A stretch of DNA of 35,327 bases, from the sequence record DRR723986_4190; one strand, written 5' to 3'. Made by a program: the position numbers and the translations under genes. Positions 1,127-32,545 of the stretch are shown here, one piece after another. How positions within the stretch are numbered: the first letter of the stretch is position 1; every line of letters begins with the position of its first letter. Below the pieces are notes generated by a model, which worked only from the letters and a program-made list of their open reading frames with translations, was not told the origin of the DNA and did not search any database.

Positions 1127-2182
1127 TTAGGCAGGCACCACAAACCGTCCAAACTCAAAACTGCCCGACCGTGCGGTGGGAGCAGTGCCGGGGAACAGCC
1201 AGTAAGGCTGTGCCTCGGAAGACGGCACCACATTCGGAAAACGATCATCCACCGGGCTTGGCCCGGCAATGCTTTTCTCCTGCACCATGGAAATGTATTG
1301 GTCCACCACGTATTCCTGCGTGTTGCCATTGATGATCACTTCTGCGCCAGTTCTTTTGGCAAAGTCGGCAAGCCCGCTGATTCTGGAATGCCTGGGCTCA
1401 TAGGCGTCGAGGCTGACCCCGTTTTCACTGGTCACCAACAAACCCTGCCCGGTGTGGGCCACAATCGAGTGATTCCCTTCAGTGTGACCTTTGGTGCGTA
1501 CCAGAGCGACCGCACCGTCACCCAGCCAGACACTGTCATCCAGCAATTCAATTCGTTCAGGCGCAATGCCTTGCGTGCCTTGGGGGCAATACCACTGGTT
1601 CTGCCAGGGAATTAAAGCCTGCGCACTTTCCCATTCCTCCCGCATCACCAACAGCTTTGCGTTCGGGAATATCGGCGTTTGCCCATTGGCTCCAAGCCAG
1701 CGGCTCACATTTTGCGTGTGAAGGTGATCGTAGGTGATGTAATCCACATCTTCAGGCCGCAGCCCGATGCTGGCCAGGCACTTCAGCACGGTGGAGGTTT
1801 TCTTCAGCACCATCGCTTCCATCACGCCCACCAGGGGGCCGGCTTTGGCATCCAGGTGCGCGAAAAATGGGGTGGCACGCTGGTGTTCCCAATCGGATGG
1901 GCTGACCAACAGTGTTTTGACACCCTCACTGCTGGAAAACTGAATGACAAACAAGCGGTTGCACAGGTGCACAAAGGGTGTGGGCAGACCGAATGCATTC
2001 AGATAAGCAAATTTGCTGGGATATGGCACGCGCACCAACTCGAAGGTTTTGTAGAACAGCACCTGGGGGTTGGCCAGCATGTCGCGACGAAAATCCTTGG
2101 CGGCCTCGCGCACATTGTCCACGCGTTGCATGGGCCGCAAAGCATCGCGGGTGCCGTCGAAGTGACTGATGCGAGTGAACAT
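1127..2182 (-). CDS. Metallo-beta-lactamase-fold hydrolase, atypical (lactonase-like scaffold)
   Basis: LASIGLRPEDVDYITYDHLHTQN, FPNAKLLVMREEW and TKGHTEGNHS; the canonical HxHxDH is altered to HLHTQN. Confidence 0.7.
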   Translation of the reverse strand: MFTRISHFDGTRDALRPMQRVDNVREAAKDFRRDMLANPQVLFYKTFELVRVPYPSKFAYLNAFGLPTPFVHLCNRLFVIQFSSSEGVKTLLVSPSDWEHQRATPFFAHLDAKAGPLVGVMEAMVLKKTSTVLKCLASIGLRPEDVDYITYDHLHTQNVSRWLGANGQTPIFPNAKLLVMREEWESAQALIPWQNQWYCPQGTQGIAPERIELLDDSVWLGDGAVALVRTKGHTEGNHSIVAHTGQGLLVTSENGVSLDAYEPRHSRISGLADFAKRTGAEVIINGNTQEYVVDQYISMVQEKSIAGPSPVDDRFPNVVPSSEAQPYWLFPGTAPTARSGSFEFGRFVVPA

Positions 2183-18780: not shown

Positions 18781-20223
18781 ATGGACAGCTCCTCTTGCAA
18801 ATACGAAACACTGGCGTTGAACCTGCAGGCCTTGATTGAGAACAATCACTTTGCAGCGGGGTACAAACTGCCGTCGATCCGGAAGCTCTCAGAGCAATGG
18901 CATTACTCCATCGACACAGTACAAAAAGCATTGAACCTGCTGGAAGACCGGGGCTATGTGCAACCTGTGGCCAAGTCAGGTTATTACGTGCAAGCCCGCA
19001 CCCTGCCCAGTGCTGCGGCCTGTACGCAGGCGCCTGATTCAATCGTGCTGGAGCCACCGGTGAACCTGGAGGTGGCCAATCAAATCGCCATGCTGCTCAG
19101 AAGCTCCACCCGCGAAGGTGTGGCACCACTGGGCGTTGCATTCCCAGCCCATGAATTGCTGCCAATTGCCACCTTGCGTAGAAGCTACGCCACTGTGAAC
19201 CGTACCCGCCCTGACCTGCTCACCTTGGGTAGCCACGTTGAACCCAATCAACCTGAACTGGTGCAGCAACTGCAACAGCGCTTTGAGTTGATGGGCATGA
19301 AATTGAAACGCGATGAGTTGGTGATCACCGATGGGTGTACTGAAGCGCTCAGCCTCGCCTTGCAAAGCGTGGCCAAACACAACGACATTGTGGCAGTTGA
19401 GTCGCCCGGTTATTACTTGCTGCTGCAAATGATTGAATCACTGGGCTTGCGCGCACTGGAAATTCCGAGCAGTCCGGAAAATGGCATGTCGCTTGAAGCA
19501 CTGGAAATTGCAGTGAAGCAAACCCGAATCGCGGCCTGTATTGTGTGCCCCACGGCCAGCAACCCCATGGGTTCTGTCATGCCCGATGCCAACCGAAAAA
19601 AACTGCTGGAGTTGGCCGAGAAATATGATTTTCCGATTGTGGAAGACAATGTGTATGCCGACCTGTACTTCGAGCGTTTTAGACCACGGCCATTGAAAGC
19701 CGGCAAGCAAAGCGACCGGGTTCTCATGTGTGGTTCATTTTCGAAATCACTGAGCCCGTCGCTGCGAATCGGCTATGTGGCAGGCGGCAAGTACGCCGCA
19801 CAGGTGTTGTCGAAAAAGCGAATTTTAAGTGGCTCCACCAACCCGATCACACAGGTGGCTGTTGCGCATTATCTGGAGAAAGGATCTTTTGAGCGGCACT
19901 TGCGCACCCTGCGCCAGCAGTTTGAAACGCAGGTGCGAGCCATGGGCAGTTTGGTACTGAAACATTTTCCGCAGGGCACCCGAATTTCAGAACCCAAAGG
20001 TGGTTTCGTGTTATGGGTTGAACTGCCAGGCGATGTCGACACCGCAGCCTTGTTCAACAAGGCGATTGCCCGAAAAGTGGCCTACATGCCAGGCAGCGTA
20101 TTCTCTGCCAGCGGCCTGTACAAAAACTGTTTACGGCTGAACTGTGGCCACCCGGTGACAGACGACACCGCAGTGGCCATTGCAAAGTTGGGAGCCCTCT
20201 TTGACGCCTCACTCGTCGCCTAA
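18781..20223 (+). CDS. MocR/GabR (GntR wHTH plus PLP aminotransferase-like domain) regulator
   Basis: KLPSIRKLS...KSGYYV wHTH; VESPGY, SNPMG, EDNVY and SFSKSLSPSLRIG (PLP Lys). Confidence 0.93.
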   Translation: MDSSSCKYETLALNLQALIENNHFAAGYKLPSIRKLSEQWHYSIDTVQKALNLLEDRGYVQPVAKSGYYVQARTLPSAAACTQAPDSIVLEPPVNLEVANQIAMLLRSSTREGVAPLGVAFPAHELLPIATLRRSYATVNRTRPDLLTLGSHVEPNQPELVQQLQQRFELMGMKLKRDELVITDGCTEALSLALQSVAKHNDIVAVESPGYYLLLQMIESLGLRALEIPSSPENGMSLEALEIAVKQTRIAACIVCPTASNPMGSVMPDANRKKLLELAEKYDFPIVEDNVYADLYFERFRPRPLKAGKQSDRVLMCGSFSKSLSPSLRIGYVAGGKYAAQVLSKKRILSGSTNPITQVAVAHYLEKGSFERHLRTLRQQFETQVRAMGSLVLKHFPQGTRISEPKGGFVLWVELPGDVDTAALFNKAIARKVAYMPGSVFSASGLYKNCLRLNCGHPVTDDTAVAIAKLGALFDASLVA

Positions 20224-21768
20224 CCACACCACTTTGTACAAGTCGCGGCGACGATCGAGGTAATTGCGAACCGAACCTTCGTTTTTCAGAATTTGAAGCT
20301 TGTCCAGGTCCACATCCACAATCAGGGTCATCTCGGTGTTGGGTGTGGTTTCCGCCATGATGGCGTCGTGTGGAAATGCGAAATCAGAGGGTGAGAACAC
20401 CGCAGTTTGCCCGTACTGAATGTCGACATTGTCCACCTTGGGCAAATTACCGAAACTGCCTGAAATGGCCACGTAGCACTCGTTTTCAATGGCACGGGCC
20501 TGCGCACAACGGCGCACGCGCAGGTATCCGTTTTTGGTGTCGGTCCAGAAAGGCACCAACAAAATTTGCATGTCTTTGTCGGCCAGCAAGCGCGACAACT
20601 CAGGAAACTCGGAGTCGTAACAAATCAGGATTCCGATCTTGCCAAAGTCGGTGTCAAACACACTCAGCTTGCTGCCACCCTCCATCATCCACTCACGTTT
20701 TTCATGCGGTGTGGGGTGAATTTTGTATTGCGCCTCCACAGTGCCATCTCGGCGGCACAAATAGGCCACGTTGTACAAGGCACCATCTTCCATCACCGGC
20801 ATGGAACCGGCCACCACATTGATGTTGTAGCTCACCGCCATGCGACTCATCTCGTCGCGAATTTGATCGGTGTAAGTGGCGAGGTGACGAATCGCCTCCA
20901 AGGAATTGCCATTGCCCGCCAAACCCATCAGGGGTGCATTGAAAAATTCGGGGAACAGGGCGACATCACAACGGTAATCTGAAAGCGCGTTGATGAAGTA
21001 CTCGGCCTGTTTCACCACGTCTTCCACGCTGTGGAATTCACGCATTTGCCACTGCACACAACCCAGGCGCGCGGTGGTTTTGGGTGCGCCAAACAGCATG
21101 GGCTTTTCGGGTTCATAGTAGATGTTGAACCACTCCAGCAAGGTGGCATAGCCCTGCGATTCCTTGTCTTCCGGTAAATAGCCTTTCAGCACCTGCTTCA
21201 CTTCAAAGTCGTTGCTGAGCTGAAAAGTAAGAATCGGGTCGTAAATGTCTTTGCGTTTCACTGCGGCAATGTACTGCTGCGGCGACATGTCTTTCATGTG
21301 CGCTTTGTAACCGGGAATTCGCCCGCCCGCCATGATGGCGCGAAGGTTGAGGTTTTGGCACAATTCCTTGCGCGCCTCGTACAGGCGGCGACCCAAACGC
21401 ATGTTGCGGTATTCAGGATCCGCAAACACATCAATGCCGTATAACACGTCACCCTTGGGGTCATGCGTGGTGGCGTAAATGTTGCCGGTGATCTCCATGT
21501 AAGTGTGTTTGTCGCCAAACTTGTCATAGTCGACCACCACTGCAAAGGCCGCGGCAATCACCTTGCCATCGTCTTCAATGCAAATTTGCCCTTCCGGAAA
21601 TGTTTTTAAAATTGAACGGAATTTGGCTTCTGGCAAAGCACCGCCAGCGCTGTGGTAGACCACCTCCATAATTCGCTTGATATCGGGATAATCAGAGGCC
21701 TGTAAATTGCGCAAGCTCAACTTGTGTTCGGTGTGTTCATACTCGGTATTTTCTATTTCTGTCGACAT
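20209..21768 (-). CDS. GNAT acetyltransferase / carbon-nitrogen hydrolase fusion
   Basis: N-terminal FPEGQ...LYGIDV..DPEYRNMRLGRRLY (acetyl-CoA motif A); C-terminal nitrilase triad FPE, YKIH and ICYD; GGAG RBS before ATG 21768. Confidence 0.9.
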   Translation of the reverse strand: MSTEIENTEYEHTEHKLSLRNLQASDYPDIKRIMEVVYHSAGGALPEAKFRSILKTFPEGQICIEDDGKVIAAAFAVVVDYDKFGDKHTYMEITGNIYATTHDPKGDVLYGIDVFADPEYRNMRLGRRLYEARKELCQNLNLRAIMAGGRIPGYKAHMKDMSPQQYIAAVKRKDIYDPILTFQLSNDFEVKQVLKGYLPEDKESQGYATLLEWFNIYYEPEKPMLFGAPKTTARLGCVQWQMREFHSVEDVVKQAEYFINALSDYRCDVALFPEFFNAPLMGLAGNGNSLEAIRHLATYTDQIRDEMSRMAVSYNINVVAGSMPVMEDGALYNVAYLCRRDGTVEAQYKIHPTPHEKREWMMEGGSKLSVFDTDFGKIGILICYDSEFPELSRLLADKDMQILLVPFWTDTKNGYLRVRRCAQARAIENECYVAISGSFGNLPKVDNVDIQYGQTAVFSPSDFAFPHDAIMAETTPNTEMTLIVDVDLDKLQILKNEGSVRNYLDRRRDLYKVVWLGDE

Positions 21769-21936
21769 GGTCACCGCTCCATTCGTTTACTTTTTGAACC
21801 TCCCTATTAGAACATATTTAGAAAATTGATGAATTTTTGATCAGTCCGGGCTCAATAAATCGGGTTTTACTGAATGGCGAGTTAAAAAATAATTCAAGAC
21901 AATTAAACATCGATTTACGACGAATAATTTCTGAAG

Positions 21937-23529
21937 ATGATTCATACCAAACGCGCACTGGGAGGCGTGTTCGTTGCGCCCCACCATTTGGCTGCACAGG
22001 CTGGCCGGGATGTGTTGAAAGAAGGCGGCAACGCCGCGGAGGCCATGATCGCTGCTGCAGCGACAATTGCAGTGGTGTACCCGCACATGAACTCGATTGG
22101 TGGTGACGGTTTCTGGCTGCTCAGCGAACCTGGCAAAGCCCCCTTGGGAATTGATGCCTGCGGCAAGGCGGCAACAAAAGCCACGCGGGCTTTTTACACG
22201 GATCAAGGGTTCGACAGCATTCCCAACCGCGGGCCATTGGCTGCGCTCACTGCAGCGGGAACGGTCGGTGGCTGGATCAAAGCCCGGGAGGTGGCCACAC
22301 AATGGGGCGGCAAATTGCCTTTGAACCGCCTGCTCAGCGACGCCGTCATCCACGCGCGAAATGGTGTGGCTGTGAGCAGCAGTCAGGAACGTTTAACCCG
22401 CGTGAAGTTCGATGAGCTGTCCACTGCCCCTGGCTTTGCCGAACATTTTTTGATGGATGGTCAGGTACCGGTTGAAGGCAGCGTACTCAAGCAAACTGCT
22501 TTGGGCGACACCCTTGCACGCATGGGCCAGGTGGGGCTGGATGATTTTTATCGCGGTGAACTGGCGCAAGCCATGGCCGAGGATTTGGCCCGCGTGGGCA
22601 GCCCGATCAGCTTGGCTGATTTGAACAGTCACCAGGCGCAGTTTGTTACGCCCCTGCAAACCGAGCTGAACAACAGCACGATTTACAACATGACACCGCC
22701 CACTCAAGGCATGGCATCACTCATGATTCTGGGCATGTTCGACACGCTGGGTATCAAGCAGGCTGAAGGATTTGAATACCTGCATGGCATGGTGGAAAGT
22801 ACCAAGCAGGCCTTTCTGGTGCGCGACCGCTATTGCACCGACCCTGCCTACATGACAGTGAACCCCAGCGATTTTCTGACCCGTGAAGCATTGGCCGAAC
22901 GTGCGAAGAAAATTGACATGCAACAAGCCCTGCCTTGGCCCCAAGACCCCTGGCAGGGCGACACCATCTGGATGGGTTGCATTGACAGCGAAGGCCGCAC
23001 CGCCAGCTTTATTCAAAGCGTGTTCTGGGAATTCGGTTCGGGCGTGGTGTGCCCATCAACCGGGGTGATGTGGCAAAACCGTGGCATCAGTTTTTCATTG
23101 AAAGAGGACGCGCTGCACAGGTTGGAGCCAGGCCGCAAACCTTTCCACACTCTGAACCCGGCCATGGCGCGTTTCAAAGATGGTCGCAGCATGGTTTACG
23201 GGACCATGGGTGGCGAGGGTCAACCTCAAACTCAAGCTGCAGTGTTTAGTCGCTATGCCTTGTTCAATCGGCCTTTGCAAACAGCGGTAACGGCGCCGCG
23301 CTGGCTGTTGGGCCGCACCTGGGGCGAGCAAAGCACCACCTTGAAACTGGAAAACCGGTTTGATGACAATCTGGTTGCACAACTGCGCGACGCAGGCCAT
23401 GTACTGGAGGTACTGCCAGAAGCTTTTAGCGACACCATGGGGCATGCGGGTGCGGTGGTACGTCACCCCAACGGCATGATGGAAGGGGCGGCTGACCCAC
23501 GTTCGGATGGTTCAGTGGCCTGTGTTTAA
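21937..23529 (+). CDS. Gamma-glutamyltransferase-family Ntn hydrolase, HpxW (oxamate amidohydrolase)-like
   Basis: APHHLA, VVYPHMNSIGGDGFWL, GDTIW (autocleavage Thr), SFIQS..EFGSG, PFHTLNP, PRWLLGRTWG, MGHAGA and DPRS; closely resembles Klebsiella HpxW as recalled. Confidence 0.85.
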   Translation: MIHTKRALGGVFVAPHHLAAQAGRDVLKEGGNAAEAMIAAAATIAVVYPHMNSIGGDGFWLLSEPGKAPLGIDACGKAATKATRAFYTDQGFDSIPNRGPLAALTAAGTVGGWIKAREVATQWGGKLPLNRLLSDAVIHARNGVAVSSSQERLTRVKFDELSTAPGFAEHFLMDGQVPVEGSVLKQTALGDTLARMGQVGLDDFYRGELAQAMAEDLARVGSPISLADLNSHQAQFVTPLQTELNNSTIYNMTPPTQGMASLMILGMFDTLGIKQAEGFEYLHGMVESTKQAFLVRDRYCTDPAYMTVNPSDFLTREALAERAKKIDMQQALPWPQDPWQGDTIWMGCIDSEGRTASFIQSVFWEFGSGVVCPSTGVMWQNRGISFSLKEDALHRLEPGRKPFHTLNPAMARFKDGRSMVYGTMGGEGQPQTQAAVFSRYALFNRPLQTAVTAPRWLLGRTWGEQSTTLKLENRFDDNLVAQLRDAGHVLEVLPEAFSDTMGHAGAVVRHPNGMMEGAADPRSDGSVACV

Positions 23530-24437
23530 ACACCTTCGCTGATTCGTTTGAAATACGAAGTATGCGCAGCAGTACCCTCGGGCCAATGCCTTAAAAAATG
23601 CTGCTGCCATGCAGTTTGATCAAATTGAACACGCACCTGCTCAATCCACACGCCGTTCAACTGCGTGGATTGAAACACCAAAGCGGGGTTGTTCAAAGAC
23701 GTCATTGAAATTCGAGTGAAGAGCCCGTCCATCTGCGCGCTGGGCATTCCGGCTGCACCGTTGTTGCTGATCAATCCGGTTTGCCCATTGCGCAGTGGCT
23801 CTGGGTGAAACCCGGCACTGCAAGTGTGGCTGCTGGCAAATACGTTCACCTGTGCTTTTTCAAACAAAGCGGCACGCCACAAAGCTTCATCCGTTTGCTT
23901 CAAGTGAGCAGGGTCAAAACGCCAACCGGCCAGTGAATCGCCATCGCCGTGCACCACAGCCACCTTCAATTCATCCACGCTGTACCGTGCAAAGAAAGGT
24001 TTGGCCAACAACTTGCTCAGCAACTCGGGTTGTTGTTGTGCGCACCGCTTCAGCTCGGTATGAATGAAGTTCGACCGGTCCACCACGCCTTGATCCACAT
24101 TTTCGGGATAGGCACAGCCGCAATCAGCCACATCCAAAGGTTCGCCAAGTTCAGCTTCCACGTTGCCCAGAATGCAATCGTGATTCAACACACGCTGGTT
24201 AATGTGAACAAAGTCTTCAAGCGATTTGTTGAACCAGTTAAAGTCGCCATTGAAACAAATGCGAACATTGCCCGATTCTCTCGAGGCCAGTTTTTCAATC
24301 GAATCCAGCGCAAATGGGTTGCCATACAAACCACCGACCACATACAACACATCGCATTGTGTAGCGGGGACCTGTGCAATTTTGGCCGCACCGTACTGGT
24401 ATCGAATCGGGCAACTGCGCCCTGCCTTCTCAATCAT
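23526..24437 (-). CDS. Divergent calcineurin-like metallophosphoesterase-fold protein, Cys-rich
   Basis: Motifs in MPP order: VVGGLYGN, FNGDF, LGNVE, VVHGD, SSHTC and NNGAAG; extra GRSCP and DCGCAYP. Confidence 0.7.
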   Translation of the reverse strand: MIEKAGRSCPIRYQYGAAKIAQVPATQCDVLYVVGGLYGNPFALDSIEKLASRESGNVRICFNGDFNWFNKSLEDFVHINQRVLNHDCILGNVEAELGEPLDVADCGCAYPENVDQGVVDRSNFIHTELKRCAQQQPELLSKLLAKPFFARYSVDELKVAVVHGDGDSLAGWRFDPAHLKQTDEALWRAALFEKAQVNVFASSHTCSAGFHPEPLRNGQTGLISNNGAAGMPSAQMDGLFTRISMTSLNNPALVFQSTQLNGVWIEQVRVQFDQTAWQQHFLRHWPEGTAAHTSYFKRISEGV

Positions 24438-24440
24438 GTT

Positions 24441-25178
24441 TCACTCGTACAAATCATCAAGGTGGGCCTGCGTTAATTCATGGCTTGCACAATCAAGAAC
24501 TACCTCACCGGCTTTCAAGCCAATGACCCGTTGGCTAAGAAGGGGGACCAGGCTCACATTGTGAACCACAGTAATCAAGGTGGAATTCTCTGTGGCCTTG
24601 ACCAAGAGTTCACACACTTCATCTGCCGCTGTAGGGTCAAGCGCCGCTGTGGGCTCATCGGCCAGCACCAGTTCAGGTTGTTGCACCAGCATGCGGGCAA
24701 TCGCCACCTTCTGTCGTTCACCACCCGACAGTTTGTCGGCCCGCTTTTCTGCCAGATGGGCCATACCGACTGCTTTCAATGCAGCTTGCGCACGCTGGGT
24801 TTCTTCATTCGTGAAAATTCGCGCCCAACTGCGCAAGCGCGGCATGCGTGCCAAACCACCCACCAACACATTTTCCATGGCGCTTAAGCGCGCAACCAAA
24901 TGCAGGCCTTGCAAGACCTGCCCCACCTCGGCTCGCACAGGGCGCAAATCACGCTCACGACGAAGCGGAAACACGGTGTGGCGGTTGACCACGATGTGCC
25001 CGGCAGTGGGTTTGACAAAGCCGTTCAAACAACGCAACAGGGTCGATTTGCCTGCACCGTTGCGCCCAAGAATGGCCACCTTTTCGCCACGTGCAATGTG
25101 AAGCGAATCCACTTTCAGAATGCGTCGCCCGGCAATCACCATTTCCAGGTTTTGAATGTCGATCATGGGGGTGCTCAT
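24441..25178 (-). CDS. Phosphonate/phosphite-family ABC transporter ATPase (PhnC/PtxA/HtxD-like)
   Basis: GRNGAGKST, LSGGERQKVAIAR and LADEP; ENVL.G.L PhnC-type segment; ATG 25178 overlaps the permease stop. Confidence 0.9.
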   Translation of the reverse strand: MSTPMIDIQNLEMVIAGRRILKVDSLHIARGEKVAILGRNGAGKSTLLRCLNGFVKPTAGHIVVNRHTVFPLRRERDLRPVRAEVGQVLQGLHLVARLSAMENVLVGGLARMPRLRSWARIFTNEETQRAQAALKAVGMAHLAEKRADKLSGGERQKVAIARMLVQQPELVLADEPTAALDPTAADEVCELLVKATENSTLITVVHNVSLVPLLSQRVIGLKAGEVVLDCASHELTQAHLDDLYE

Positions 25179-26056
25179 AGCAAGGCCGTCCGGATTCTGC
25201 GACTGATGGCATCGAAGGCGGTCACCATCAACACCACCATAATCAAAATGCTGGACAAGCGCCCCCATTGAAACAGGGACACCGCCTCAGAAATCAGCAG
25301 GCCCAAACCACCCGCACCAATAATTCCGAGAATGGTAGAGTCGCGAATGTTGTACTCCCACAAGTACAAGTGACTGCTGACCCATTGTGGCAACACGCTA
25401 GGCCACACCGACCAGAAGAAAGTTTGCGAAGGACTGGCACCTACGCCCCGGACTGCTTCGATCGAGGCCATGTCCAGTGTTTCAATGGATTCGGCAAACA
25501 ACTTGCCATACGTGCCCAGGCTGTGAAATGCGATGGCCAGAATACCTGCTGTGGGACCAAGCCCCACAATGCCCACCAGCACCAAACCAAACACCAGAGT
25601 GTGAATGGAGCGTGAGGTGTCCAGCACCAAACGCGAGAATGCTGTGACCACACGAGGCGCCTTGATATTCCGGGCGCTAAGTACTCCAAAAGGCAATGCC
25701 AGAATGGCCCCCAACAAAGACCCCAGAGTGGCGATTTTGAAGGTGGTCCAGGTGGCAAAACCCAATTGCACCAACCACTGTTTTTCGACTTCCTGTCGAT
25801 TCTCAGTGCGCAGCACGGTGCCATCGTCGCTTTTGTATTCGTATGCGGGGTCGCCCAACCACACGTCGACAAAACTGGGGCGTGCGAACTCCGTGGCTGT
25901 TTTAATGAAATTGGCCACCGGGTTGCGGCCCATGGACAAATCACCGGCCGTGGCCAGACTGTAAATACAGGCCAACACAATGAGCGCATACAAAAAAACC
26001 AGCCCGAAAAACCCGAGCCGGCCTCGCAAGTGAAGCTTGAACTGCATCCAATTCAT
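25175..26056 (-). CDS. Phosphonate/phosphite-family ABC permease (PhnE/PtxC-like)
   Basis: GLGPTAGILAI, GKLFAESIE and EYNIRDSTILGIIGAGGLG motifs. Confidence 0.92.
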   Translation of the reverse strand: MNWMQFKLHLRGRLGFFGLVFLYALIVLACIYSLATAGDLSMGRNPVANFIKTATEFARPSFVDVWLGDPAYEYKSDDGTVLRTENRQEVEKQWLVQLGFATWTTFKIATLGSLLGAILALPFGVLSARNIKAPRVVTAFSRLVLDTSRSIHTLVFGLVLVGIVGLGPTAGILAIAFHSLGTYGKLFAESIETLDMASIEAVRGVGASPSQTFFWSVWPSVLPQWVSSHLYLWEYNIRDSTILGIIGAGGLGLLISEAVSLFQWGRLSSILIMVVLMVTAFDAISRRIRTALL

Positions 26057-26074
26057 GATGTGGCGGTCAATTCC

Positions 26075-26941
26075 TTACTTGGGTTGCAAGCGGCCGGTGG
26101 CCAGGCCTGCATCACGAATGGGTTTGTAGTAGCTGTTGTCTTTCTTGGCAAACCCGGTGTAGCGCGGTGGCAGCAGGTTGGGCTGGTTTTTCAGTTCCGC
26201 GCCAATGCCCAGCAGGGCCTCCTGCAATTTGGCCACAAAGGCTTTGTCTTCAAACAATTTTGCACTGACCGCAAATGCATCGTTGGGCAAAGGGTCCGAA
26301 GTCCAGATGATTTTGGAATCTTCTGCCTTGATCAAACCATCGGCAATCATGGCGTCGCGGTTGCGGTTGTAATCTGCGCCCGCATCAATTGCACCTTGGG
26401 TCACCTGGGTTTGAATGGCCTGATGGCTGGTGTTGATTACTTTCGAGAAATACGTGTCGGGGTTAATGCCCTGCTTCTGAAAATAATGGAAGGGAATGAG
26501 ATAGCCAGACGTTGAACCTTTGTCGCCAAATGCAAAGGTTTTGCCTTTCAAATCGGCCATGCTTTTAATGCCGCTTTTCGGGTTGGTCACCATGATGCCA
26601 AAGTATTCCGGTTTACCTTCATATTCAATGGTGGCCACCGCTTGGGCTTTGGCTTCATTGTTGGCCAACACATAACCCCAAGGGCCCATCAGGGCAATGT
26701 CGGTCTCTCCATTGGCCAGCGATTTTGCCAACCCTTCCCAGGTGCTCACCGTGCGCAGCTTGACGGGTTTGCCCAGTTTCTTTTCAAGGTATTGGGCCAA
26801 AGGGGTATAGGTGGCGTCGTTTTTGTCTTTGTCAGGCTGGTACAAGCCCACACCAAACTGAATCACTTCTTGGGCAACAACTGGAGTAGAAACCAGGGCA
26901 AAACTGAAAGCACCGATCAGGGCTTTGGTCAACAAACGCAT
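26075..26941 (-). CDS. Phosphate/phosphite/phosphonate ABC substrate-binding protein, HtxB-like clade
   Basis: Signal peptide; STW, GPWGYVL, GDKGSTSGYLIP, SHQ, DYNRNR and LPNDA motifs. Confidence 0.88.
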   Translation of the reverse strand: MRLLTKALIGAFSFALVSTPVVAQEVIQFGVGLYQPDKDKNDATYTPLAQYLEKKLGKPVKLRTVSTWEGLAKSLANGETDIALMGPWGYVLANNEAKAQAVATIEYEGKPEYFGIMVTNPKSGIKSMADLKGKTFAFGDKGSTSGYLIPFHYFQKQGINPDTYFSKVINTSHQAIQTQVTQGAIDAGADYNRNRDAMIADGLIKAEDSKIIWTSDPLPNDAFAVSAKLFEDKAFVAKLQEALLGIGAELKNQPNLLPPRYTGFAKKDNSYYKPIRDAGLATGRLQPK

Positions 26942-27092
26942 GGTCAAGTTCCGTAATGAAATTGAAGAATTGGGATATAAAAGAGAACAACAAGACTTAT
27001 TACGCTAAACAATTCACAAAGGTTACAGTAAATCGATTTAAGTTCGATGAGGATTGTTGCGCCAGTGGCCAGATAGCGCTTCATTCTTGCGA

Positions 27093-27995
27093 TTAATCGG
27101 ATTGCTTGATGGCCAACCAGGCCTCGTAACCACCTTCCAGGGCTTTGGCCTGCCTGTAACCCTGTTTGCGCAAAAGGCCAGCCACATGGGCGGCACTGAC
27201 ATCATCAGGACAAGCACACATGGTCACGATCAAGTCAGTTTTGGGCCAGGCGCGGGCTGCGGCCAAAGCGCTTTCGGCGTTGGCGGGTAACCAGCCTGCC
27301 AATGGCTCGGCTTCCTGAACTATGGCGGGCCGCAGATCGACGAGCCGTATATTGGAATGACCGGTTTTGACCAAAGCCAGCACTTCATCGGCGGGCACTT
27401 TGGGCATTTTCAAGCGCGCCTGAAATGCATCGCGGCGGGCCAACTTCCACATCAGCCAGAACGCGCAAATCAGTGCGGCCACCACACCCACAATGAAAAG
27501 ATTGTCCTGCAAAGCTGCAAACACTGCATTGACCTGATCCTGAAACAACCAGCCAGCCAACAGGGCAGCCATGGCCCACAAAAACGCGCCCACAGCCGAG
27601 GCAATCGTGAACTTGAGAATGGACATTTTCACAGCGCCTGCAATGGGAGGCGCCACCGTGGAAAACCCGGGAATGAACTTGGCGACCACCAGTGACCAAG
27701 GACCCCACACGCGAAAACGGGATTCAGTTTGGCTGACACACGATTCAGGGTTAATGGACAATTTACACAGTATGGAGAGGACCCGGTAGCCGTAGTAACG
27801 ACCCGCGATGTACCAAACCCAGTCAGCAATCAAGGACGCAGAAGTTGCAATCACTGCCAGCAAGAAAATACCCGACCACTGCCCTGACAAACTGGCTGAC
27901 AAGATCATGGTGGGCACGGCAGGCACAGGTGCGCCCAACTGCTGCAACAGCACGTTGAAGAAAACCAGAACTTCTGTGGTTTCAAACAAAGACAT
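27093..27995 (-). CDS. DedA (VTT) family membrane protein fused to a rhodanese domain
   Basis: QQLGAPVPAVP, AKFIPGFSTVAPP (DedA); VDLR, MCACPDD and LEGGYEAW (rhodanese). Confidence 0.9.
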   Translation of the reverse strand: MSLFETTEVLVFFNVLLQQLGAPVPAVPTMILSASLSGQWSGIFLLAVIATSASLIADWVWYIAGRYYGYRVLSILCKLSINPESCVSQTESRFRVWGPWSLVVAKFIPGFSTVAPPIAGAVKMSILKFTIASAVGAFLWAMAALLAGWLFQDQVNAVFAALQDNLFIVGVVAALICAFWLMWKLARRDAFQARLKMPKVPADEVLALVKTGHSNIRLVDLRPAIVQEAEPLAGWLPANAESALAAARAWPKTDLIVTMCACPDDVSAAHVAGLLRKQGYRQAKALEGGYEAWLAIKQSD

Positions 27996-28176
27996 GGTGA
28001 GGACCGCCAAAAACTGCCCGGCAAAAATGTGCGCTATTTGCAGATAGCAACATCATAAGCATTTTCCAGTGACGGAAACGTGTTTTAGAGGAATGACTCT
28101 GGGTTTTGGTCAACGCCGGGTCACAAAGTGACGTTACCCTGACACCTCGAGTAATTCAACATGAAGGAGTACACAC

Positions 28177-28461
28177 ATGGCAGACCTCGAACACTACAAG
28201 GCCAAGCTGAACGCCCAACTGGACGAATGGAAAGCAGACCTGGACAAACTCAAGGCCAAAGCCGACGGTAAATCTGCTGACGCCAAAAAAGAGTTGAACG
28301 AATCAATCGATGCACTGGAAGCCAAGCTGGCGCAGGGCCGCTCAAAACTGGAAGAGCTCAAGGGCGCCAGCGCTGAAGCCTTCGACAGCTTGAAAGAAGG
28401 TGCGAACAGCGCTTGGGACAGCATCAAAGAGGCCTTTGACAAGGCCAAGTCCAAGTTCTAA
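28177..28461 (+). CDS. Small helical coiled-coil protein (Sll1863-like stress-response type)
   Basis: AAGGAG RBS; Y.AKL.AQLDEW.ADLDKLKAKA...AW...K.AF..A.SKF pattern. Confidence 0.8.
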   Translation: MADLEHYKAKLNAQLDEWKADLDKLKAKADGKSADAKKELNESIDALEAKLAQGRSKLEELKGASAEAFDSLKEGANSAWDSIKEAFDKAKSKF

Positions 28462-30091: not shown

Positions 30092-32545
30092 TTACTTCAA
30101 CGACGGGTTGAACCCGCGAGACGTGCATGGCATGCCATTGCACACATCAATCAACGCACCCTGCTTTTTCAAGAACGCAGACTTCATGTCCATGTTTTTT
30201 TCTTCGTTGCGGGGGTGACCGTGCGGATCGGCACCATAACCTGTGGTCATGGGTCGGTTGTCCAGCGGCGGCGGCGCACTGCCATTGGGATTCGCAGAAC
30301 CATCGGCATTCGTCATGGGGCCGCTGTCCCACACGGTGAGCGCATTGCCTGCATGCGGATACTTTTTGATGCATGGCAAACCGAAATACGGATGATCATC
30401 GGGGTGCCTGCGCCCGAAAGACACATTCGGAAACTGCTCCTGTTCGGCACGCACAGCAGGGTGGGCCTGCTTGAGCACCGCAGGCCCGCGCTGAGCGGAA
30501 GGACCACCCACCACGGCGGGGCATTGCAATGGCGCCTCTATGGTTCTCGCCATGATTTCCGCAGTGTTCATATACACCTGGTGATCAGCAAATGCGGGGA
30601 TCAGCAATACACGCTTGTTGGGTCGCGTGCCAGGCAACTCCCGACCTGGGGCCAAACTCCAGGCGTAACCATTGTTCTCACCCCGATCCCACAACATCTG
30701 AATCAGCGAGAGAATGAATTGCTGATCCAGCGAGGCGGGATAAGACTCGTAAAACGCAGGGGCGTAGGGTGCAAAATCCACGGAGCGTTGCAACAAGGTG
30801 GAGTAGGCCATGCCCGGTACACCCAACGTTGCGGCTTGAATGTCCGGCGAGATCGCTGTGACAGGCCCACCATTGATGCCGCCTTGCGAATTGCCGTCGT
30901 AAAACAGTTCGCTGCGGTCAATCAGGCATTTGCCCTCTTTCTGAAAAGCGGGGTGAGTACAAAATCCATTCTCGGAAATCATGGCCCGACCCAACATCGT
31001 GAAGTTCAAAAAGCCCTGTTGCAACCGATCGGTGAGGCGATTGAAGCCGCTGAAGTCCGTCAACATCAACACCGTACTGGCCAAATCACCGCCCGCCGCA
31101 TCCCAGAAGGGATCGTATTTGCGATTGTCATCGGGATCATCAGGCTGATTGCCCGTGGCCAAGCCGGCCCAATCCACCATGCAGAACAGGAAATTGTGGC
31201 GCTCGGCCATCACGCGCACATTCAAATCATAGGTGTTGCCTTCATCGCGAGAGCCCAGCAAACCATGACCATACAAGGACGCGCGCGCAGGTTCACCCGT
31301 GTCCAGGTTTTTGCGCGCAATGGAGCAAATGAACGGCACGCTGGCATTTGGCGTCAGGGGGTTGCGCTGCGGCAGGGCTGTGGCCGGGCTGCCAGTGGGC
31401 ACCAGCGGATAGTTGTAAGTGCCACCCGACAAACAATTCGGGCTGGTGAGAAAACATGGCACATCAATGTGACCACGAATTCGTCTTGCGGTAATTTCAC
31501 TGGCTGATCCGTTCTCCGGATTCTCAATCACTGCATCAATCGTAAAGTTGGGCGATTGCGAGGCTGTCGCTTCGATGGACACATCACGCGCATGAATCAG
31601 GCGTTCAGTCAGGTTCCTTTCTGATGCGACAGTGAAGTCCCATGCAAGGTAGAGATTTTCACGTTCAACACCCGCCAGGTTCAGCACGCTGAAAATATTT
31701 TCCATCAGCGGTTTGCGGGCATTTTGCGCAGCGTTCGCCAGCGGTGTGCCATCCCGGTACGCCTTGAATACCGGGTTGGGCTGTAGGGTGTCGCCAGCAC
31801 TGTTTTTCAGATTTCGCATGGCCACGATGTAACGTCGCCCCGGTTCCAGATTTTTGGCCACCCGAATGACCAATGCGGGGCCAGGATCTGCGTTGGGCAA
31901 GCTCAAACGGCCCTGGGTGATGTTGGCGTCCAGTTCAGCCCAAATCAATTGCTTCTTCAAAGTCAAGGTGTCAATCAGCACAATCGGCTGATTGCGCTGC
32001 AAACTCGCTTCGATATTGGTAATGGGCACTGCACCCGTTTTTTGCAAATCAAGCCCGGGTACACGCGTCAGAATAGGTTGACCGGGAGAAAACCCGTCAT
32101 TGCGATTCCAGTCAGTGGGATCGATGGGCTTGCCCGCAATGTTCTTGGGCATGGCCAATGCATTCAAATTCACCCGCATCTTGGTGTCGGTTTGCGTGTC
32201 TGCGGTTGTGAAGTAATTGTTCGGAAATGGGAACAGACAGTAGGCCGGGTCCAGCGGATCACAGCGCTCGGCACCCGCTGGCGCAGCGCCGGTGCCGGCT
32301 GGCTCAGTTCGTACCACAGGGTCTTTAGGAAACAAGGGAGGCTCAACACCCCCGCCACCATCGTCACCCCCGCCATCGCCAGGGTTGTCTGGATCTTCCG
32401 GATCCACCGGCGTGTCGGGTTCCTCCTCATTGGGATTGGTGATGGTGGGGTTGTCAGCCTGCGGCGATGCTGAATCGCCCATGCACCCACCCAATAGCAA
32501 AGCCCAAGCCAATACAATGGCCCCAACCCGGTTTGTCGTCCTCAT
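30092..32545 (-). CDS. Large lipoprotein with a C-terminal alpha/beta-hydrolase (lipase-like) domain
   Basis: Lipobox LLGGC; acidic Pro/Gly tether; NDGFSP N-terminal domain; LYGHGLLG oxyanion region, GNSQGG nucleophile elbow, candidate Asp (ADHQV) and His (DPHG). Confidence 0.78.
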   Translation of the reverse strand: MRTTNRVGAIVLAWALLLGGCMGDSASPQADNPTITNPNEEEPDTPVDPEDPDNPGDGGGDDGGGGVEPPLFPKDPVVRTEPAGTGAAPAGAERCDPLDPAYCLFPFPNNYFTTADTQTDTKMRVNLNALAMPKNIAGKPIDPTDWNRNDGFSPGQPILTRVPGLDLQKTGAVPITNIEASLQRNQPIVLIDTLTLKKQLIWAELDANITQGRLSLPNADPGPALVIRVAKNLEPGRRYIVAMRNLKNSAGDTLQPNPVFKAYRDGTPLANAAQNARKPLMENIFSVLNLAGVERENLYLAWDFTVASERNLTERLIHARDVSIEATASQSPNFTIDAVIENPENGSASEITARRIRGHIDVPCFLTSPNCLSGGTYNYPLVPTGSPATALPQRNPLTPNASVPFICSIARKNLDTGEPARASLYGHGLLGSRDEGNTYDLNVRVMAERHNFLFCMVDWAGLATGNQPDDPDDNRKYDPFWDAAGGDLASTVLMLTDFSGFNRLTDRLQQGFLNFTMLGRAMISENGFCTHPAFQKEGKCLIDRSELFYDGNSQGGINGGPVTAISPDIQAATLGVPGMAYSTLLQRSVDFAPYAPAFYESYPASLDQQFILSLIQMLWDRGENNGYAWSLAPGRELPGTRPNKRVLLIPAFADHQVYMNTAEIMARTIEAPLQCPAVVGGPSAQRGPAVLKQAHPAVRAEQEQFPNVSFGRRHPDDHPYFGLPCIKKYPHAGNALTVWDSGPMTNADGSANPNGSAPPPLDNRPMTTGYGADPHGHPRNEEKNMDMKSAFLKKQGALIDVCNGMPCTSRGFNPSLK

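Follow-up and report, generated by a model that had tools for sequence, protein, structure and literature searches.

An HtxB-like ABC transporter coupled to a Cys-Gly-Cys-bearing metallophosphoesterase-fold protein and linked to ArsS: a possible module for the import and preparation of a small arsenical

The window analyzed here, a stretch of 35,327 nt from sequence record DRR723986_4190, carries on its minus strand four closely spaced genes encoding a binding protein, a permease, an ATPase and a protein with a metallophosphoesterase (MPP) fold (Table 1). An earlier note on this DNA had described these genes as tightly coupled, and all open reading frames and junctions were confirmed. The TAA of the binding protein gene and the ATG of the permease gene are separated by 18 nt, the permease stop and the ATPase start form an ATGA overlap, and a gap of 3 nt (AAC) lies between the ATPase stop and the MPP start. 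The description of the last protein as Cys-rich was also borne out, as it contains 8 Cys in 303 residues, five of which are invariant across 21 relatives. Likewise, phn, ptxD and htxA were correctly reported as missing from the window: among 30 non-overlapping ORFs, picked from the 70 ORFs of at least 120 aa, no member of the PhnJ, TauD or 2-hydroxyacid dehydrogenase families was detected.

Table 1. Position of the genes of the operon and of the elements upstream of it within the window.
Feature	Position	Strand	Remarks
MPP-fold gene, degenerate, Cys-Gly-Cys-bearing	23526..24437	-	303 aa
ATPase gene, PhnC-type ABC	24441..25178	-	245 aa from ATG at 25178
Permease gene, PhnE-type ABC	25175..26056	-	293 aa
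Binding protein gene, HtxB-like subfamily	26075..26941	-	288 aa from ATG at 26941
TGTAAC	27022..27027	-	86 nt upstream of the binding protein start
DedA (VTT) and rhodanese fusion, possible accessory gene	27093..28010	-	PF09335 (E 1e-16), PF00581 (E 9e-5)

On the same strand, 145 nt upstream of the operon, lies a gene for a DedA-rhodanese fusion. Of the 18 closest loci (L089-L106), 15 carry it at the same place, and other lineages have a DedA-disulfide-oxidoreductase fusion nearby instead (16/80 loci). The DedA-rhodanese gene may belong to the unit. A 'rhodanese-related (seleno)protein' model gives a weak match to its rhodanese domain (40.5 bits, cut-off 115). The hexamer TGTAAC is invariant in 10/10 aligned Limnobacter upstream regions with a mean column identity of 39% and is possibly a promoter or regulator site, a candidate based on conservation; a generic promoter scan returned nothing at this site. 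By eye, no convincing Pho box was found upstream of the operon.

The binding protein belongs to PF12974 (E 4e-62) and scores above the cut-off of TIGR01098 (178 bits, cut-off 112). Its nearest solved relative is HtxB (5me4, 166.4 bits), in agreement with the label HtxB-like given before, followed by PtxB (86.1 bits), PhnD (77.5 bits) and ArrX/AioX (about 51 bits). The third-best NCBIfam match, TIGR04553 'putative selenate ABC transporter substrate-binding protein', is far below its cut-off (112.5 bits, cut-off 250). Of the HtxB pocket, residues W52, P71, Y97, T129, S130, R178 and D206 are retained, and the substitutions N128S, F158H and M176Y are those of a published 'HtxB-like' subfamily, for which phosphite was predicted as ligand (Adams et al., 2019; PMC6629693). 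All residues with which HtxB, a hypophosphite binder, contacts its ligand are kept, including the Trp cap, which speaks against an arsenic cargo. In the HtxB/PtxB work this cap is described as reading the P-H bond (PMC6629693), and HtxB is described as binding an anion with one protonated oxygen via D206. Throughout all 80 members of the binding protein clade the pocket is invariant or almost so (D206 in 80/80), with L in place of W68 and Y/F in place of M18 as changes relative to HtxB. The permease exceeds the equivalog cut-off of TIGR01097 PhnE (231.8 bits, cut-off 216.7) and also matches PF00528. The ATPase was assigned to PF00005 (E 7e-36), and its match to TIGR02315 PhnC, beginning at residue 5 of the 245-aa reading, is below cut-off (235.9 bits, cut-off 266.1).

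Searches with the 303-aa protein returned nothing from Pfam, even at E 10, or from NCBIfam, and its family profile matched no PDB sequence at E 10. Although sequence libraries are blind to it, the MPP fold proposed earlier was recovered by structure: an AlphaFold model (pLDDT 87.2, pTM 0.89) yielded 206 Foldseek matches at E ≤ 0.001, with the MPPs 3qfn, 3rqz and 1nnw on top. Conservation was counted over 150 representatives sharing at most 50% identity. The site-2 ligands D65 (145/147), N92 (146/147), H163 (148/148) and H204 (138/147) are retained, while the site-1 metal ligands are replaced by G36 (136/136), Y38 (137/137) and C206, and the motif-III histidine is also gone (position 93 is V or I in 143/147). 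A Cys-Gly-Cys loop (C106 in 145/148, C108 in 146/148) matches the metal ligands in its degree of conservation, and C9, in an extra conserved N-terminal stretch, is present in 124/131. Based on this residue pattern, we propose that the protein may no longer be a two-metal phosphoesterase.

Car1 of Rufibacter tibetensis (Shen et al. 2024, Mol Microbiol 122:201) is described in PMC12124457 as an MPP-fold arsenate reductase, in which Cys74 and Cys76 are essential for As(V) reduction. When the MPP family profile was run against a Bacteroidota sample, MPPs were found in 18/301 genomes. Eight Cys-Gly-Cys-bearing ars-type MPPs were aligned, of which six have at least one ars gene (ArsR, ACR3, ArsM, ArsN2 or ArsO) beside them; one neighbor match is weak, and the scan covered all but one of the loci. 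In 6/8 the motif occupies residues 74-76. By their context and residue numbers, these ars-operon MPPs are taken to be probable Car1 orthologues. In hhalign comparisons the window's MPP family matched them with 93.7% probability (E 1.8e-7), and C106-G-C108 aligned with C74-G-C76. The window's protein thus appears to be a distant, previously unrecognized relative of the Car1-type arsenate reductases.

Conservation of the four-gene unit, a check that had been suggested for this operon, was analyzed from both sides. Of the 66 loci whose upstream DNA spans 4 kb or more, 33 have an ABC transporter immediately before the MPP gene, and in 30 of these the distance is no more than 1 kb. Conversely, the MPP gene follows the HtxB-like binding protein clade in 52/69 loci with enough downstream DNA, and in the Burkholderiales order sample it was present in 18 of the 19 genomes harboring this clade. 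The MPP-fold gene is hence a conserved partner of the transporter clade, and since the coupling recurs across genera it is far beyond chance. Where the ABC system is missing, the usual stand-in before the MPP gene is an SSS-like symporter (21/66 loci), with 45% identity between its copies from proteobacteria and Bacteroidota; the Bacteroidota gene order is SusC-SusD-symporter-MPP. A second PhnD-like clade (about 40% identity) adjoins the MPP gene in three genomes (G016, G124, G292). The slot before the MPP gene is always filled by some importer. There was also no sign of a C-P lyase or HtxA encoded elsewhere that the transporter could supply, as PhnJ was missing from the nearest genome (0/1) and the TauD/HtxA family from the genomes with the transporter-MPP pair (0/5).

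Among 301 Burkholderiales genomes, the radical-SAM enzyme ArsS was present in 59/59 MPP-positive genomes versus 115/301 overall (raw counts, phylogeny ignored). As 56 of the 115 ArsS genomes are without MPP, ArsS does not need the MPP-fold protein. In other lineages ArsS was above cut-off in 4/5 genomes with a transporter-linked MPP versus 1/5 with an ars-operon MPP. ArsS was present in 41/66 MPP loci, and at least one of ArsS, TIGR04282, TIGR04283, MTA phosphorylase or DUF3047 in 47/66. Natural fusions were also detected: MPP with ArsS (clusters P0196 and P0214, two members each), with DUF2064 (P0127, seven members on at least 13 contigs, the most widespread fusion) and with an ABC ATPase (P0136). 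In the nearest genome (G001), ArsS, TIGR04282 and TIGR04283 lie on contigs other than that of the MPP gene, and in the window itself no gene of the ArsS set adjoins the operon. ACR3 or ArsR was found in 0 of 160 MPP loci; this, the ArsS genomes without MPP, the lack of adjoining ArsS-set genes in the window and the unusual nature of deliberate arsenic import speak against the arsenic reading set out below. Recognized ArsM was scarce (NF008823 above cut-off in 6/59 MPP-positive genomes, NF038099 in 1/301), and ArsM-like genes, present in 15/59 MPP-positive versus 18/56 ArsS-positive, MPP-negative genomes, were not complementary to MPP, a further point against that reading. Since ArsS is reported to adenosylate trivalent dimethylarsenite (PMC13598754) and recognized ArsM is scarce, an outside source of the ArsS substrate is plausible.

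Because the importer-MPP pair was found only together with ArsS (59/59 MPP-positive Burkholderiales genomes), we tentatively favor arsenic import and preparation for the ArsS pathway: the unit might import a small arsenical and reduce it with thiols to feed ArsS. The cargo is probably an arsenic compound, selenium or phosphorus being less likely. The HtxB-like binding protein and the PhnE/PhnC-type transporter would import a small tetrahedral or pyramidal oxyanion with at most three oxygens, the likeliest being a pentavalent arsenical (methylarsonate, dimethylarsinate or arsenate). The MPP-fold protein would keep a single metal/oxyanion site (D65, N92, H163, H204), and its Cys106-Gly-Cys108 loop would work as Cys74/Cys76 do in Car1, one thiol attacking the bound pentavalent oxyanion and the second resolving the adduct. 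A trivalent reduced species would be set free or passed on, and a thiol system, to which the adjoining DedA-rhodanese or DedA-disulfide-reductase proteins perhaps belong, would re-reduce the disulfide. The trivalent product would then serve as substrate of ArsS, which is encoded elsewhere in Limnobacter and adjacent or fused in other bacteria. Of the cargoes named in the earlier note for an enzyme acting on phosphorus or As/Se oxyanions, the As/Se option, listed last, is favored, whereas reduced phosphorus fits less well given the ArsS nesting and the Car1 kinship.

Import of hydrogen selenite, with selenium going to SelD or an ArsS-type radical-SAM enzyme, is an improbable alternative. Here the Cys-Gly-Cys loop would capture the selenite as a selenotrisulfide, to be reduced by the DedA-rhodanese or DedA-disulfide reductase. 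DedA proteins are linked to selenite uptake, which counts for this reading, and hydrogen selenite is shaped like monoanionic phosphite, a lone pair replacing the P-H bond; the invariant D206 is the HtxB contact to the protonated oxygen. Names also point to selenium: the ArsS family is described as '(seleno)protein' by NCBIfam and the DUF2064-MPP fusion is named 'rSAM/selenodomain-associated transferase 1' in one source. The selenate-type match of the binding protein and the '(seleno)protein' match of the rhodanese domain do so as well, but both are far under their cut-offs. SelD was above cut-off in 5/5 genomes with the transporter-MPP pair, an observation compatible with selenium; however, this gene is widespread, and its link to MPP was assessed across these five genomes. 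Moreover, the MPP relatives lie in ars operons rather than selenium loci, and the tested members of the ArsS and Car1 families are described as acting on arsenic (PMC13598754, PMC12124457).

It is unlikely that hypophosphite, phosphite or a small phosphonate is imported and turned into usable phosphorus by the MPP-fold protein, an option that for phosphite and hypophosphite survives solely through the binding protein pocket. HtxB is by far the nearest solved relative, its pocket is kept with the three substitutions of the subfamily predicted to bind phosphite (PMC6629693), the permease is above the PhnE equivalog cut-off, and neither PhnJ (nearest genome) nor a TauD-family gene (five genomes) is there for the job. 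However, MPP occurs only with ArsS in Burkholderiales and is fused to it in two protein clusters, it is related to arsenate reductases, and neither the hydrolytic site-1 ligands nor the histidine of motif III survive in it. In addition, 21/66 loci have an unrelated symporter in place of the ABC system, phosphite oxidation requires an electron acceptor that the Cys pair does not offer, and the upstream region is without a convincing Pho box. Thus, while the proposed MPP-transporter link holds, a self-contained phosphorus-utilization operon with the MPP as hydrolase is not supported, given the site-1 loss, the Car1 kinship and the nesting in ArsS genomes.

We give as little credence to a retained hydrolase activity, in which the MPP-fold protein, with one metal, would act as phosphodiesterase or pyrophosphatase on a nucleotide-linked intermediate in the ArsS/DUF2064/glycosyltransferase pathway and the transporter would supply the heteroatom only. 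The top structural match 3qfn is an Ap4A hydrolase/phosphodiesterase, the most widespread fusion partner DUF2064 (TIGR04282) is a CofC-like nucleotidyl-transferase-type domain, and the site-2 ligands are conserved, but practically no member retains the site-1 ligands or the motif-III histidine, the Cys-Gly-Cys loop is conserved to the same degree as the metal ligands, and the fixed neighbor of the MPP gene is the importer, not the transferases. Ordinary detoxification, in which the MPP-fold protein would reduce arsenate leaking in via a phosphorus-type transporter without a link to biosynthesis, is very unlikely despite the homology to ars-operon MPPs, as ACR3 and ArsR are missing from the loci, MPP is strictly nested in ArsS genomes and fused with ArsS, and the Trp cap, judged from the HtxB/PtxB work (PMC6629693), should bar a four-oxygen anion.

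With the hypophosphite transporter HtxBCDE of Pseudomonas stutzeri the window's system shares PhnE/PhnC-type membrane parts and, in the binding protein (166 bits to HtxB), the Trp cap, the Tyr, the Thr-Ser oxyanion loop and the Arg-Asp salt bridge. Unlike HtxBCDE, it has a single permease gene and the two pocket changes W68 to L and M18 to Y/F; it is without htxA (TauD family in 0/5 genomes) or, in the window, a ptxD-type gene, and its partners are a Cys-bearing MPP and ArsS.

Arsenate reductases have arisen from phosphatase folds before, in LMW-PTP-type ArsC and Cdc25/rhodanese-type Acr2. These folds are unrelated to the MPP fold, but in both a phosphate-ester-binding fold is reused to bind and reduce an arsenic oxyanion through cysteines. 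The Car1-type proteins share about 20% identity with the window's MPP and have in common with it the fold, the site-2 ligands, a motif III without histidine (GNYD in Car1-type, GNVE here) and a Cys-x-Cys loop that follows motif III at a distance of about 12-14 residues. They keep, however, the site-1 ligands D8, H10 and H167, which correspond to G36, Y38 and C206, they do not share the N-terminal stretch with C9, and they reside in ars operons, whereas the window's family was found in such an operon in 0/160 loci and adjoins importers and ArsS. As the window's MPP is without the two-metal site of Car1-type proteins, its mechanism may differ; unlike them, it is unrecognized by PF12850 or any other model, and its reductase role is predicted.

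The ArsS set (TIGR04167 ArsS, TIGR04282, TIGR04283 and an MTA-phosphorylase-like gene) is named 'arsenosugar biosynthesis' in NCBIfam, formerly 'rSAM/selenodomain-associated', and includes no model or name for the MPP and the transporter. The cyanobacterial pathway pairs ArsM with ArsS, whereas ArsM is mostly missing here, and in Limnobacter the set is spread over several contigs. Across the loci surveyed, it holds or adjoins the MPP and the importer in 47/66, and its members are fused to the MPP.

The four coupled minus-strand genes described in the earlier note were confirmed on the window sequence with their gaps and overlap, and are collected in the table together with the other features discussed here. 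The binding protein passed TIGR01098 (178 bits, cut-off 112), which places it among importers of the PhnCDE/PtxABC/HtxBCDE type, and did not pass the PhnD equivalog TIGR03431 (187.9 bits, cut-off 261.1). The permease scored above the PhnE cut-off (231.8 against 216.7 bits) and the ATPase remained below that of PhnC (235.9 against 266.1 bits). Among solved binding proteins the closest is HtxB, a hypophosphite binder (166.4 bits), followed by PtxB (86) and PhnD (77); ArrX and AioX, both arsenic sensors, reached about 51 bits in the same comparison. Transporters of the htx, ptx and phn type travel with HtxA, PtxD or C-P lyase. A scan of 30 window ORFs gave none of these, as had been claimed before, and the objection that the transporter feeds C-P lyase or HtxA encoded elsewhere was not borne out, as PhnJ was found in 0/1 genome (G001, the nearest genome, a Limnobacter) and the TauD family in 0/5 genomes carrying the pair. 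A promoter and terminator scan gave no signal above shuffled expectation near the operon, and an upstream Pho box was rejected, the invariant TGTAAC looking by eye like half a Pho box only. Contigs from four runs were compared with positions 23000-28400, which the RNA-library contigs cover piecemeal, one of them spanning the junction of permease and binding protein and ending at 26989; these libraries may contain DNA, and the contigs define neither transcript, start nor strand. Conservation of the gamma-glutamyltransferase and GNAT fusion genes beside the four genes is limited to close relatives within Limnobacter.

Coordinates of the four genes and of further features in the window, in loci from other genomes (L) and in genomes (G)
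Feature	Sequence	Position	Strand	Remark
Binding protein gene	window	26075-26941	-	PF12974, E 4e-62
Permease gene	window	25175-26056	-	18-nt gap after binding protein gene; TIGR01097 (PhnE)
ATPase gene	window	24441-25178	-	ATGA overlap with permease stop; PhnC best match
303-aa protein gene (MPP fold)	window	23526-24437	-	3-nt gap after ATPase gene
Gamma-glutamyltransferase gene	window	21937-23529	+	converges on MPP gene, 4-nt overlap with its end
GNAT + carbon-nitrogen-hydrolase fusion	window	20209-21774	-	beyond gamma-glutamyltransferase gene
DedA-rhodanese fusion	window	27093-28010	-	
ORF, 817 aa	window	30092-32545	-	no Pfam family at E 1e-5
ORF, 351 aa	window	1127-2182	-	no Pfam family at E 1e-5
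DedA-flavoprotein fusion	L052	6918-9104	+	
HAD hydrolase	L038	1191-2024	+	
Symporter	L066	4598-6004	+	
Symporter	L197	6794-8146	-	
Symporter	L192	4675-6030	-	
Symporter	L190	4217-5569	-	
SusC + SusD	L192	6041-10688	-	
SusC + SusD	L197	8252-12799	-	
Tandem MPP paralogue	L193	5167-5904	-	
Tandem MPP paralogue	L196	5190-5927	-	
Tandem MPP paralogue	L200	5224-5961	-	
ORF between ArsR and ACR3	L193	7781-8251	-	
ORF between ArsR and ACR3	L196	7797-8267	-	
ORF between ArsR and ACR3	L202	7377-7844	-	
TIGR04283 + TIGR04282 frame	G001:C25 (L084/L085)	26597-27874		490 aa
SelD match	G001:C2	72321-73244		
SelD match	G005:C21			
SelD match	G204:C3			
ArsM-like methyltransferase	G026:C1	1118281-1119905		

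The fourth protein had no Pfam match even at E 10 and no NCBIfam match, and the profile of its family gave no match to PDB sequences at E 10. Its AlphaFold model (pLDDT 87.2) adopts the alpha/beta sandwich of the metallophosphoesterases (MPP), with 3qfn, 3rqz and 1nnw as top Foldseek matches (E about 1e-9, TM-score up to 0.71 on the target). Nearest clusters in the ESM Atlas were unnamed; one PF12850 cluster scored 0.93, a lead later confirmed by alignment. At least 7,751 proteins matched the MPP; among the 120 matches listed none carried a Pfam domain and all were named hypothetical except one 'calcineurin-like'. Searching 1.84 billion representatives with the profile gave 1163 clusters at E<=0.001, of which 385 reach E<=1e-30. 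The canonical five motifs (DxH, GD, GNH[DE], H, GHxH; two metal sites) are not all present. Motif I reads GGLYGN, without Asp or His, motif III GNVE, with Val in place of His, and motif V SSHTC, with Cys replacing the second His. The site-1 ligands are gone (Asp to Gly, His to Tyr, last His to Cys) and the site-2 ligands D65 (of GD), N92, H163 and H204 are retained, and a conserved Cys-Gly-Cys loop stands after motif III. Counted over the best 150 representatives, this pattern hardly varies, with G36 in 136/136, Y38 in 137/137, D65 in 145/147, N92 in 146/147, E94 in 147/147, C106 in 145/148, C108 in 146/148, Y110 in 146/148, H163 in 148/148, H204 in 138/147, C206 in 131/147 and C9 in 124/131. 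C61 is invariant in close relatives, yet Cys in only 22/147 representatives.

Linkage of the four genes across genomes was analyzed from both ends. A scan of species-representative genomes with the MPP matched at least 599 stretches, 546 of those listed encoding a relative; the best 80 were retained for analysis. Of these, 66 have at least 4 kb upstream, and in 33 of the 66 the genes for binding protein, permease and ATPase lie just upstream of the MPP, within 1 kb of it in 30 of the 33. A symporter-like protein (SSS-like) replaces the ABC genes in 21/66 loci, always with ArsS just before it. ArsS is a radical-SAM enzyme (TIGR04167) whose companions are the NCBIfam 'arsenosugar biosynthesis' set. 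The remaining 12/66 loci had neither transporter, with ArsS or TIGR04282 directly upstream of the MPP in five of them and, in L055, TIGR04282 directly downstream on the opposite strand. From the other end, 80 loci were kept for the binding protein (67-99% identity), and the MPP follows it on the same strand within 5 kb in 52 of the 69 whose downstream DNA spans 3.8 kb or more; two of the other 17 have the MPP about 5.9 kb away, behind ArsS. Thus the unit is coupled both ways (33/66 and 52/69), in locus sets that share some genomic places and are therefore not independent. In another two of the 17, L133 and L161, a protein of 270-276 aa, barely recognized by PF12850, occupies the MPP slot. In 9/80 of the binding-protein loci the ATPase gene is missing from its place between permease and MPP at the filter of at least 40% identity (L108, L110, L117, L122, L141, L150, L152, L158 and L162), and ArsS stands between permease and MPP in L153-L155.

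Outside Limnobacter, the neighbors of the MPP include ArsS (461 bits), the 'arsenosugar biosynthesis glycosyltransferases' TIGR04282 and TIGR04283, an MTA-phosphorylase-like gene, DUF3047 and a DedA-disulfide-oxidoreductase fusion. ArsS was found in 41 of the 66 MPP loci from the best 80, and at least one gene of its set in 47. Among 301 Burkholderiales genomes 59 carry the MPP and 115 ArsS, and ArsS was present in 59/59 MPP-positive genomes (hypergeometric 1e-30, ignoring relatedness; MPP in 35/142 genera). The 115 include three unpublished genomes, G027, G206 and G295, two of which are also counted in the ArsM figures, and G206 in that for NF038099; since none of the three is MPP-positive, the 59/59 result is independent of them. 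The binding-protein clade (at least 65% identity) occurred in 19/301 genomes, 18 of them with MPP and all 19 with ArsS. Fusions were obtained as well: MPP with ArsS in protein clusters P0196 and P0214 (two members each, different assemblies), DUF2064 with MPP in P0127 (7 members on at least 13 contigs) and ABC ATPase with MPP in P0136 (one member). The names of near-identical proteins and loci point to a Limnobacter as the window's organism. Genome-wide statements on it rest on G001, which holds 86% of the window's words and is 100% complete. ArsS is not adjacent to the four genes in the window or in G001, where ArsS and a frame matching both TIGR04283 and TIGR04282 lie on contigs other than theirs; as both matches fall within a single open frame, the transferases appear to be fused. 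A 455-aa ORF adjoining ArsS in G001 was considered as the symporter and rejected. In a literature search, to which subscription papers and supplements may add, no paper was found that links the MPP family or HtxB-like transporters to ArsS.

Further genes recur at these loci. DedA (VTT) fused to a MerA/glutathione-reductase-like flavoprotein lies near the MPP in 16 of the best 80 loci, and in Limnobacter a rhodanese domain takes the place of the flavoprotein (15 of the 18 closest loci). The DedA-fusion protein may be a redox partner of the MPP. A HAD hydrolase resembling type-II haloacid dehalogenases (TIGR01428, 121.9 bits, cut-off 125.4) directly follows the MPP in 14 of the best 80 loci, L038 and 13 others. 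In three Limnobacter genomes SelD lies within open frames of 763-851 aa, which suggests a fusion with a further domain; in G001 some 40 kb separate it from ArsS on the same contig.

To analyze the binding site, the HtxB pocket residues reported in the available text of PMC6629693 were mapped onto the binding protein through its alignment with HtxB. W52 (the Trp cap), Y97, T129, S130, P71 and the R178-D206 salt bridge are retained, and N128S, F158H, M176Y, W68L and M18Y are altered. The first three changes are identical to those of the 'HtxB-like' subfamily of that study, for which, in the same text, a larger pocket and phosphite binding were predicted. The mapped positions are invariant or nearly so across 80/80 clade members. 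Their composition therefore favors a small anion that has two or three oxygens and places a hydrogen, a methyl group or a lone pair beneath the Trp. By this sequence comparison, which does not discriminate among them, hypophosphite, phosphite, methylarsonate, dimethylarsinate and hydrogen selenite would each fit; caution is advised in naming HtxB-like transporters phosphite or hypophosphite importers by their pocket only. For a phosphorus cargo, as proposed in the earlier note, the pocket argument still stands. What held of that proposal is the MPP as conserved partner of the transporter (52/69 loci); its reduced-phosphorus operon gave way to a unit better seen as a putative ArsS-serving variant of Car1-type reductases. 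A selenium cargo, a less likely one, would agree with SelD in 5/5 genomes examined and with several selenium-flavored, sub-threshold model matches; the binding protein scored 112.5 bits against TIGR04553 (putative selenate ABC transporter binding protein), whose cut-off is 250.

Supply of the ArsS substrate was considered next to this. According to the available text of PMC13598754, ArsS adenosylates trivalent dimethylarsenite. Most of the 115 ArsS-positive genomes lack a recognized arsenite methyltransferase: ArsM exceeded its cut-off in 6/59 MPP genomes, NF038099 in 1/301 genomes, and G001 had no ArsM above cut-off. Since recognized ArsM is scarce, supply from outside is attractive. ArsM-like matches at E<=1e-40 occurred in 15/59 MPP-positive, 18/56 ArsS-positive but MPP-negative and 10/186 ArsS-negative genomes; that ArsS genomes have either ArsM or MPP was rejected, as the genomes do not sort in this way. 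An ArsM-like methyltransferase scoring 160-180 bits, below the NF008823 cut-off, adjoins ArsS or lies within 7 kb of it in several genomes that have ArsS but no MPP (G026, with similar places in G039, G050, G104, G134, G141 and G262).

Car1 of Rufibacter tibetensis is an As(V)-reducing MPP in which Cys74 and Cys76 are essential (available text of PMC12124457). A profile, A2, was built from the MPP family and the two PF12850-type slot-fillers and searched in 301 genomes of the Bacteroidota, a phylum chosen by way of a Paludibacteraceae genome and to which Rufibacter belongs as well. Matches were obtained in 18/301 genomes; of 15 places fetched, 11 had an ORF match, and four (L191, L194, L198, L204) had no MPP ORF under the filter used. 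Eight of the 11 are MPPs of the 255-aa class, six of them with ars genes alongside, namely ArsR and ACR3 (L193, L196), ArsR, ArsM and ACR3 (L199), ArsN2 and ACR3 (L203), ArsO (L201) and ArsR (L202); the neighbor match of L195 was weak, and L200 was left out of the neighbor scan. In these MPPs motifs I, II, IV and V are canonical. Six of the eight have Cys-Gly-Cys at residues 74-76, and the other two differ only by the ORF start called. Given the ars-operon context and this motif, they were taken as Car1 orthologues. Car1 is reportedly coupled to thioredoxin and promiscuous for its metal. Profile-profile comparison related the MPP family to the ars-operon MPPs with a probability of 93.7% (E 1.8e-7, 215 columns). 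Tandem MPP paralogues in the same ars operons, which nest with the Car1-type proteins in the tree, have no Cys-Gly-Cys loop and the motif GNHD; 3rqz, the nearest solved structure, also lacks the loop. Three ars operons contain an ORF of 155-156 aa without NCBIfam family between ArsR and ACR3.

The other three Bacteroidota matches are transporter-linked and share the degenerate motif I of the window's MPP family. In L192 and L197 the symporter-MPP pair comes after genes for a TonB-dependent receptor of the SusC type and a SusD-like lipoprotein, so that the uptake chain is complete across outer and inner membrane; L190 has the order porin-like, DUF2064, symporter, radical SAM, MPP. The symporter, a membrane protein of roughly 450-470 aa that is 45% identical between Bacteroidota and Proteobacteria and sub-threshold to sodium:solute symporters (PF00474 19 bits; TIGR00813 31-42 bits), is an uncharacterized transporter family in its own right. 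ArsS exceeded its cut-off in 4/5 genomes with a transporter-linked MPP compared to 1/5 with an ars-operon MPP. In an unrooted tree the MPP family forms a single long branch with full support, and the transporter-linked forms stand between it and the ars-operon clade.

Taken together, the four genes are best seen as a putative new variant on the Car1-type reductase, coupled to a transporter and reduced to one site, that would serve the ArsS pathway. The HtxB-like ABC system would import a small anion, thiols would reduce it at the remaining metal/oxyanion site of the MPP, and the reduced product would be passed to ArsS. Against this reading, loss of site 1 may mean a different chemistry, 56/115 ArsS genomes have no MPP, and no ars resistance gene (ACR3, ArsR) was found in 160 loci. 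ArsS-type genes are common in non-photosynthetic bacteria, and as most of the 115 ArsS-positive genomes lack a recognized arsenite methyltransferase, the source of the ArsS substrate and the purpose of the pathway come into question. The pair of importer and reductase-like protein offers a concrete answer that can be tested. A far-reaching version, which we consider rather improbable, is that many heterotrophs acquire arsenic deliberately. A dedicated importer of high affinity (HtxB-like ABC, symporter, or SusCD with symporter) would take up methylated As(V) that other organisms release as dimethylarsinate or methylarsonate. The one-metal Cys-Gly-Cys MPP would reduce it and hand the trivalent product directly to ArsS, and bacteria without ArsM would thus make arsenosugar-type compounds. 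If true, this would make the MPP the first reductase of methylated As(V) species in bacteria. A lead on function would also be gained for a large unnamed family (1163 clusters at 50% identity), whose window member is matched by no Pfam or NCBIfam model, and the recently found MPP arsenate reductases would extend to a branch in which one metal site was lost. With the Car1-type enzymes the family shares the two cysteines after motif III, C106-G-C108 of the window protein aligning with C74-G-C76 of the ars-operon MPPs. Unlike these enzymes, which have an intact binuclear site and reside in ars operons, it lacks the site-1 ligands and stands outside such operons (ACR3 or ArsR in 0/160 loci).
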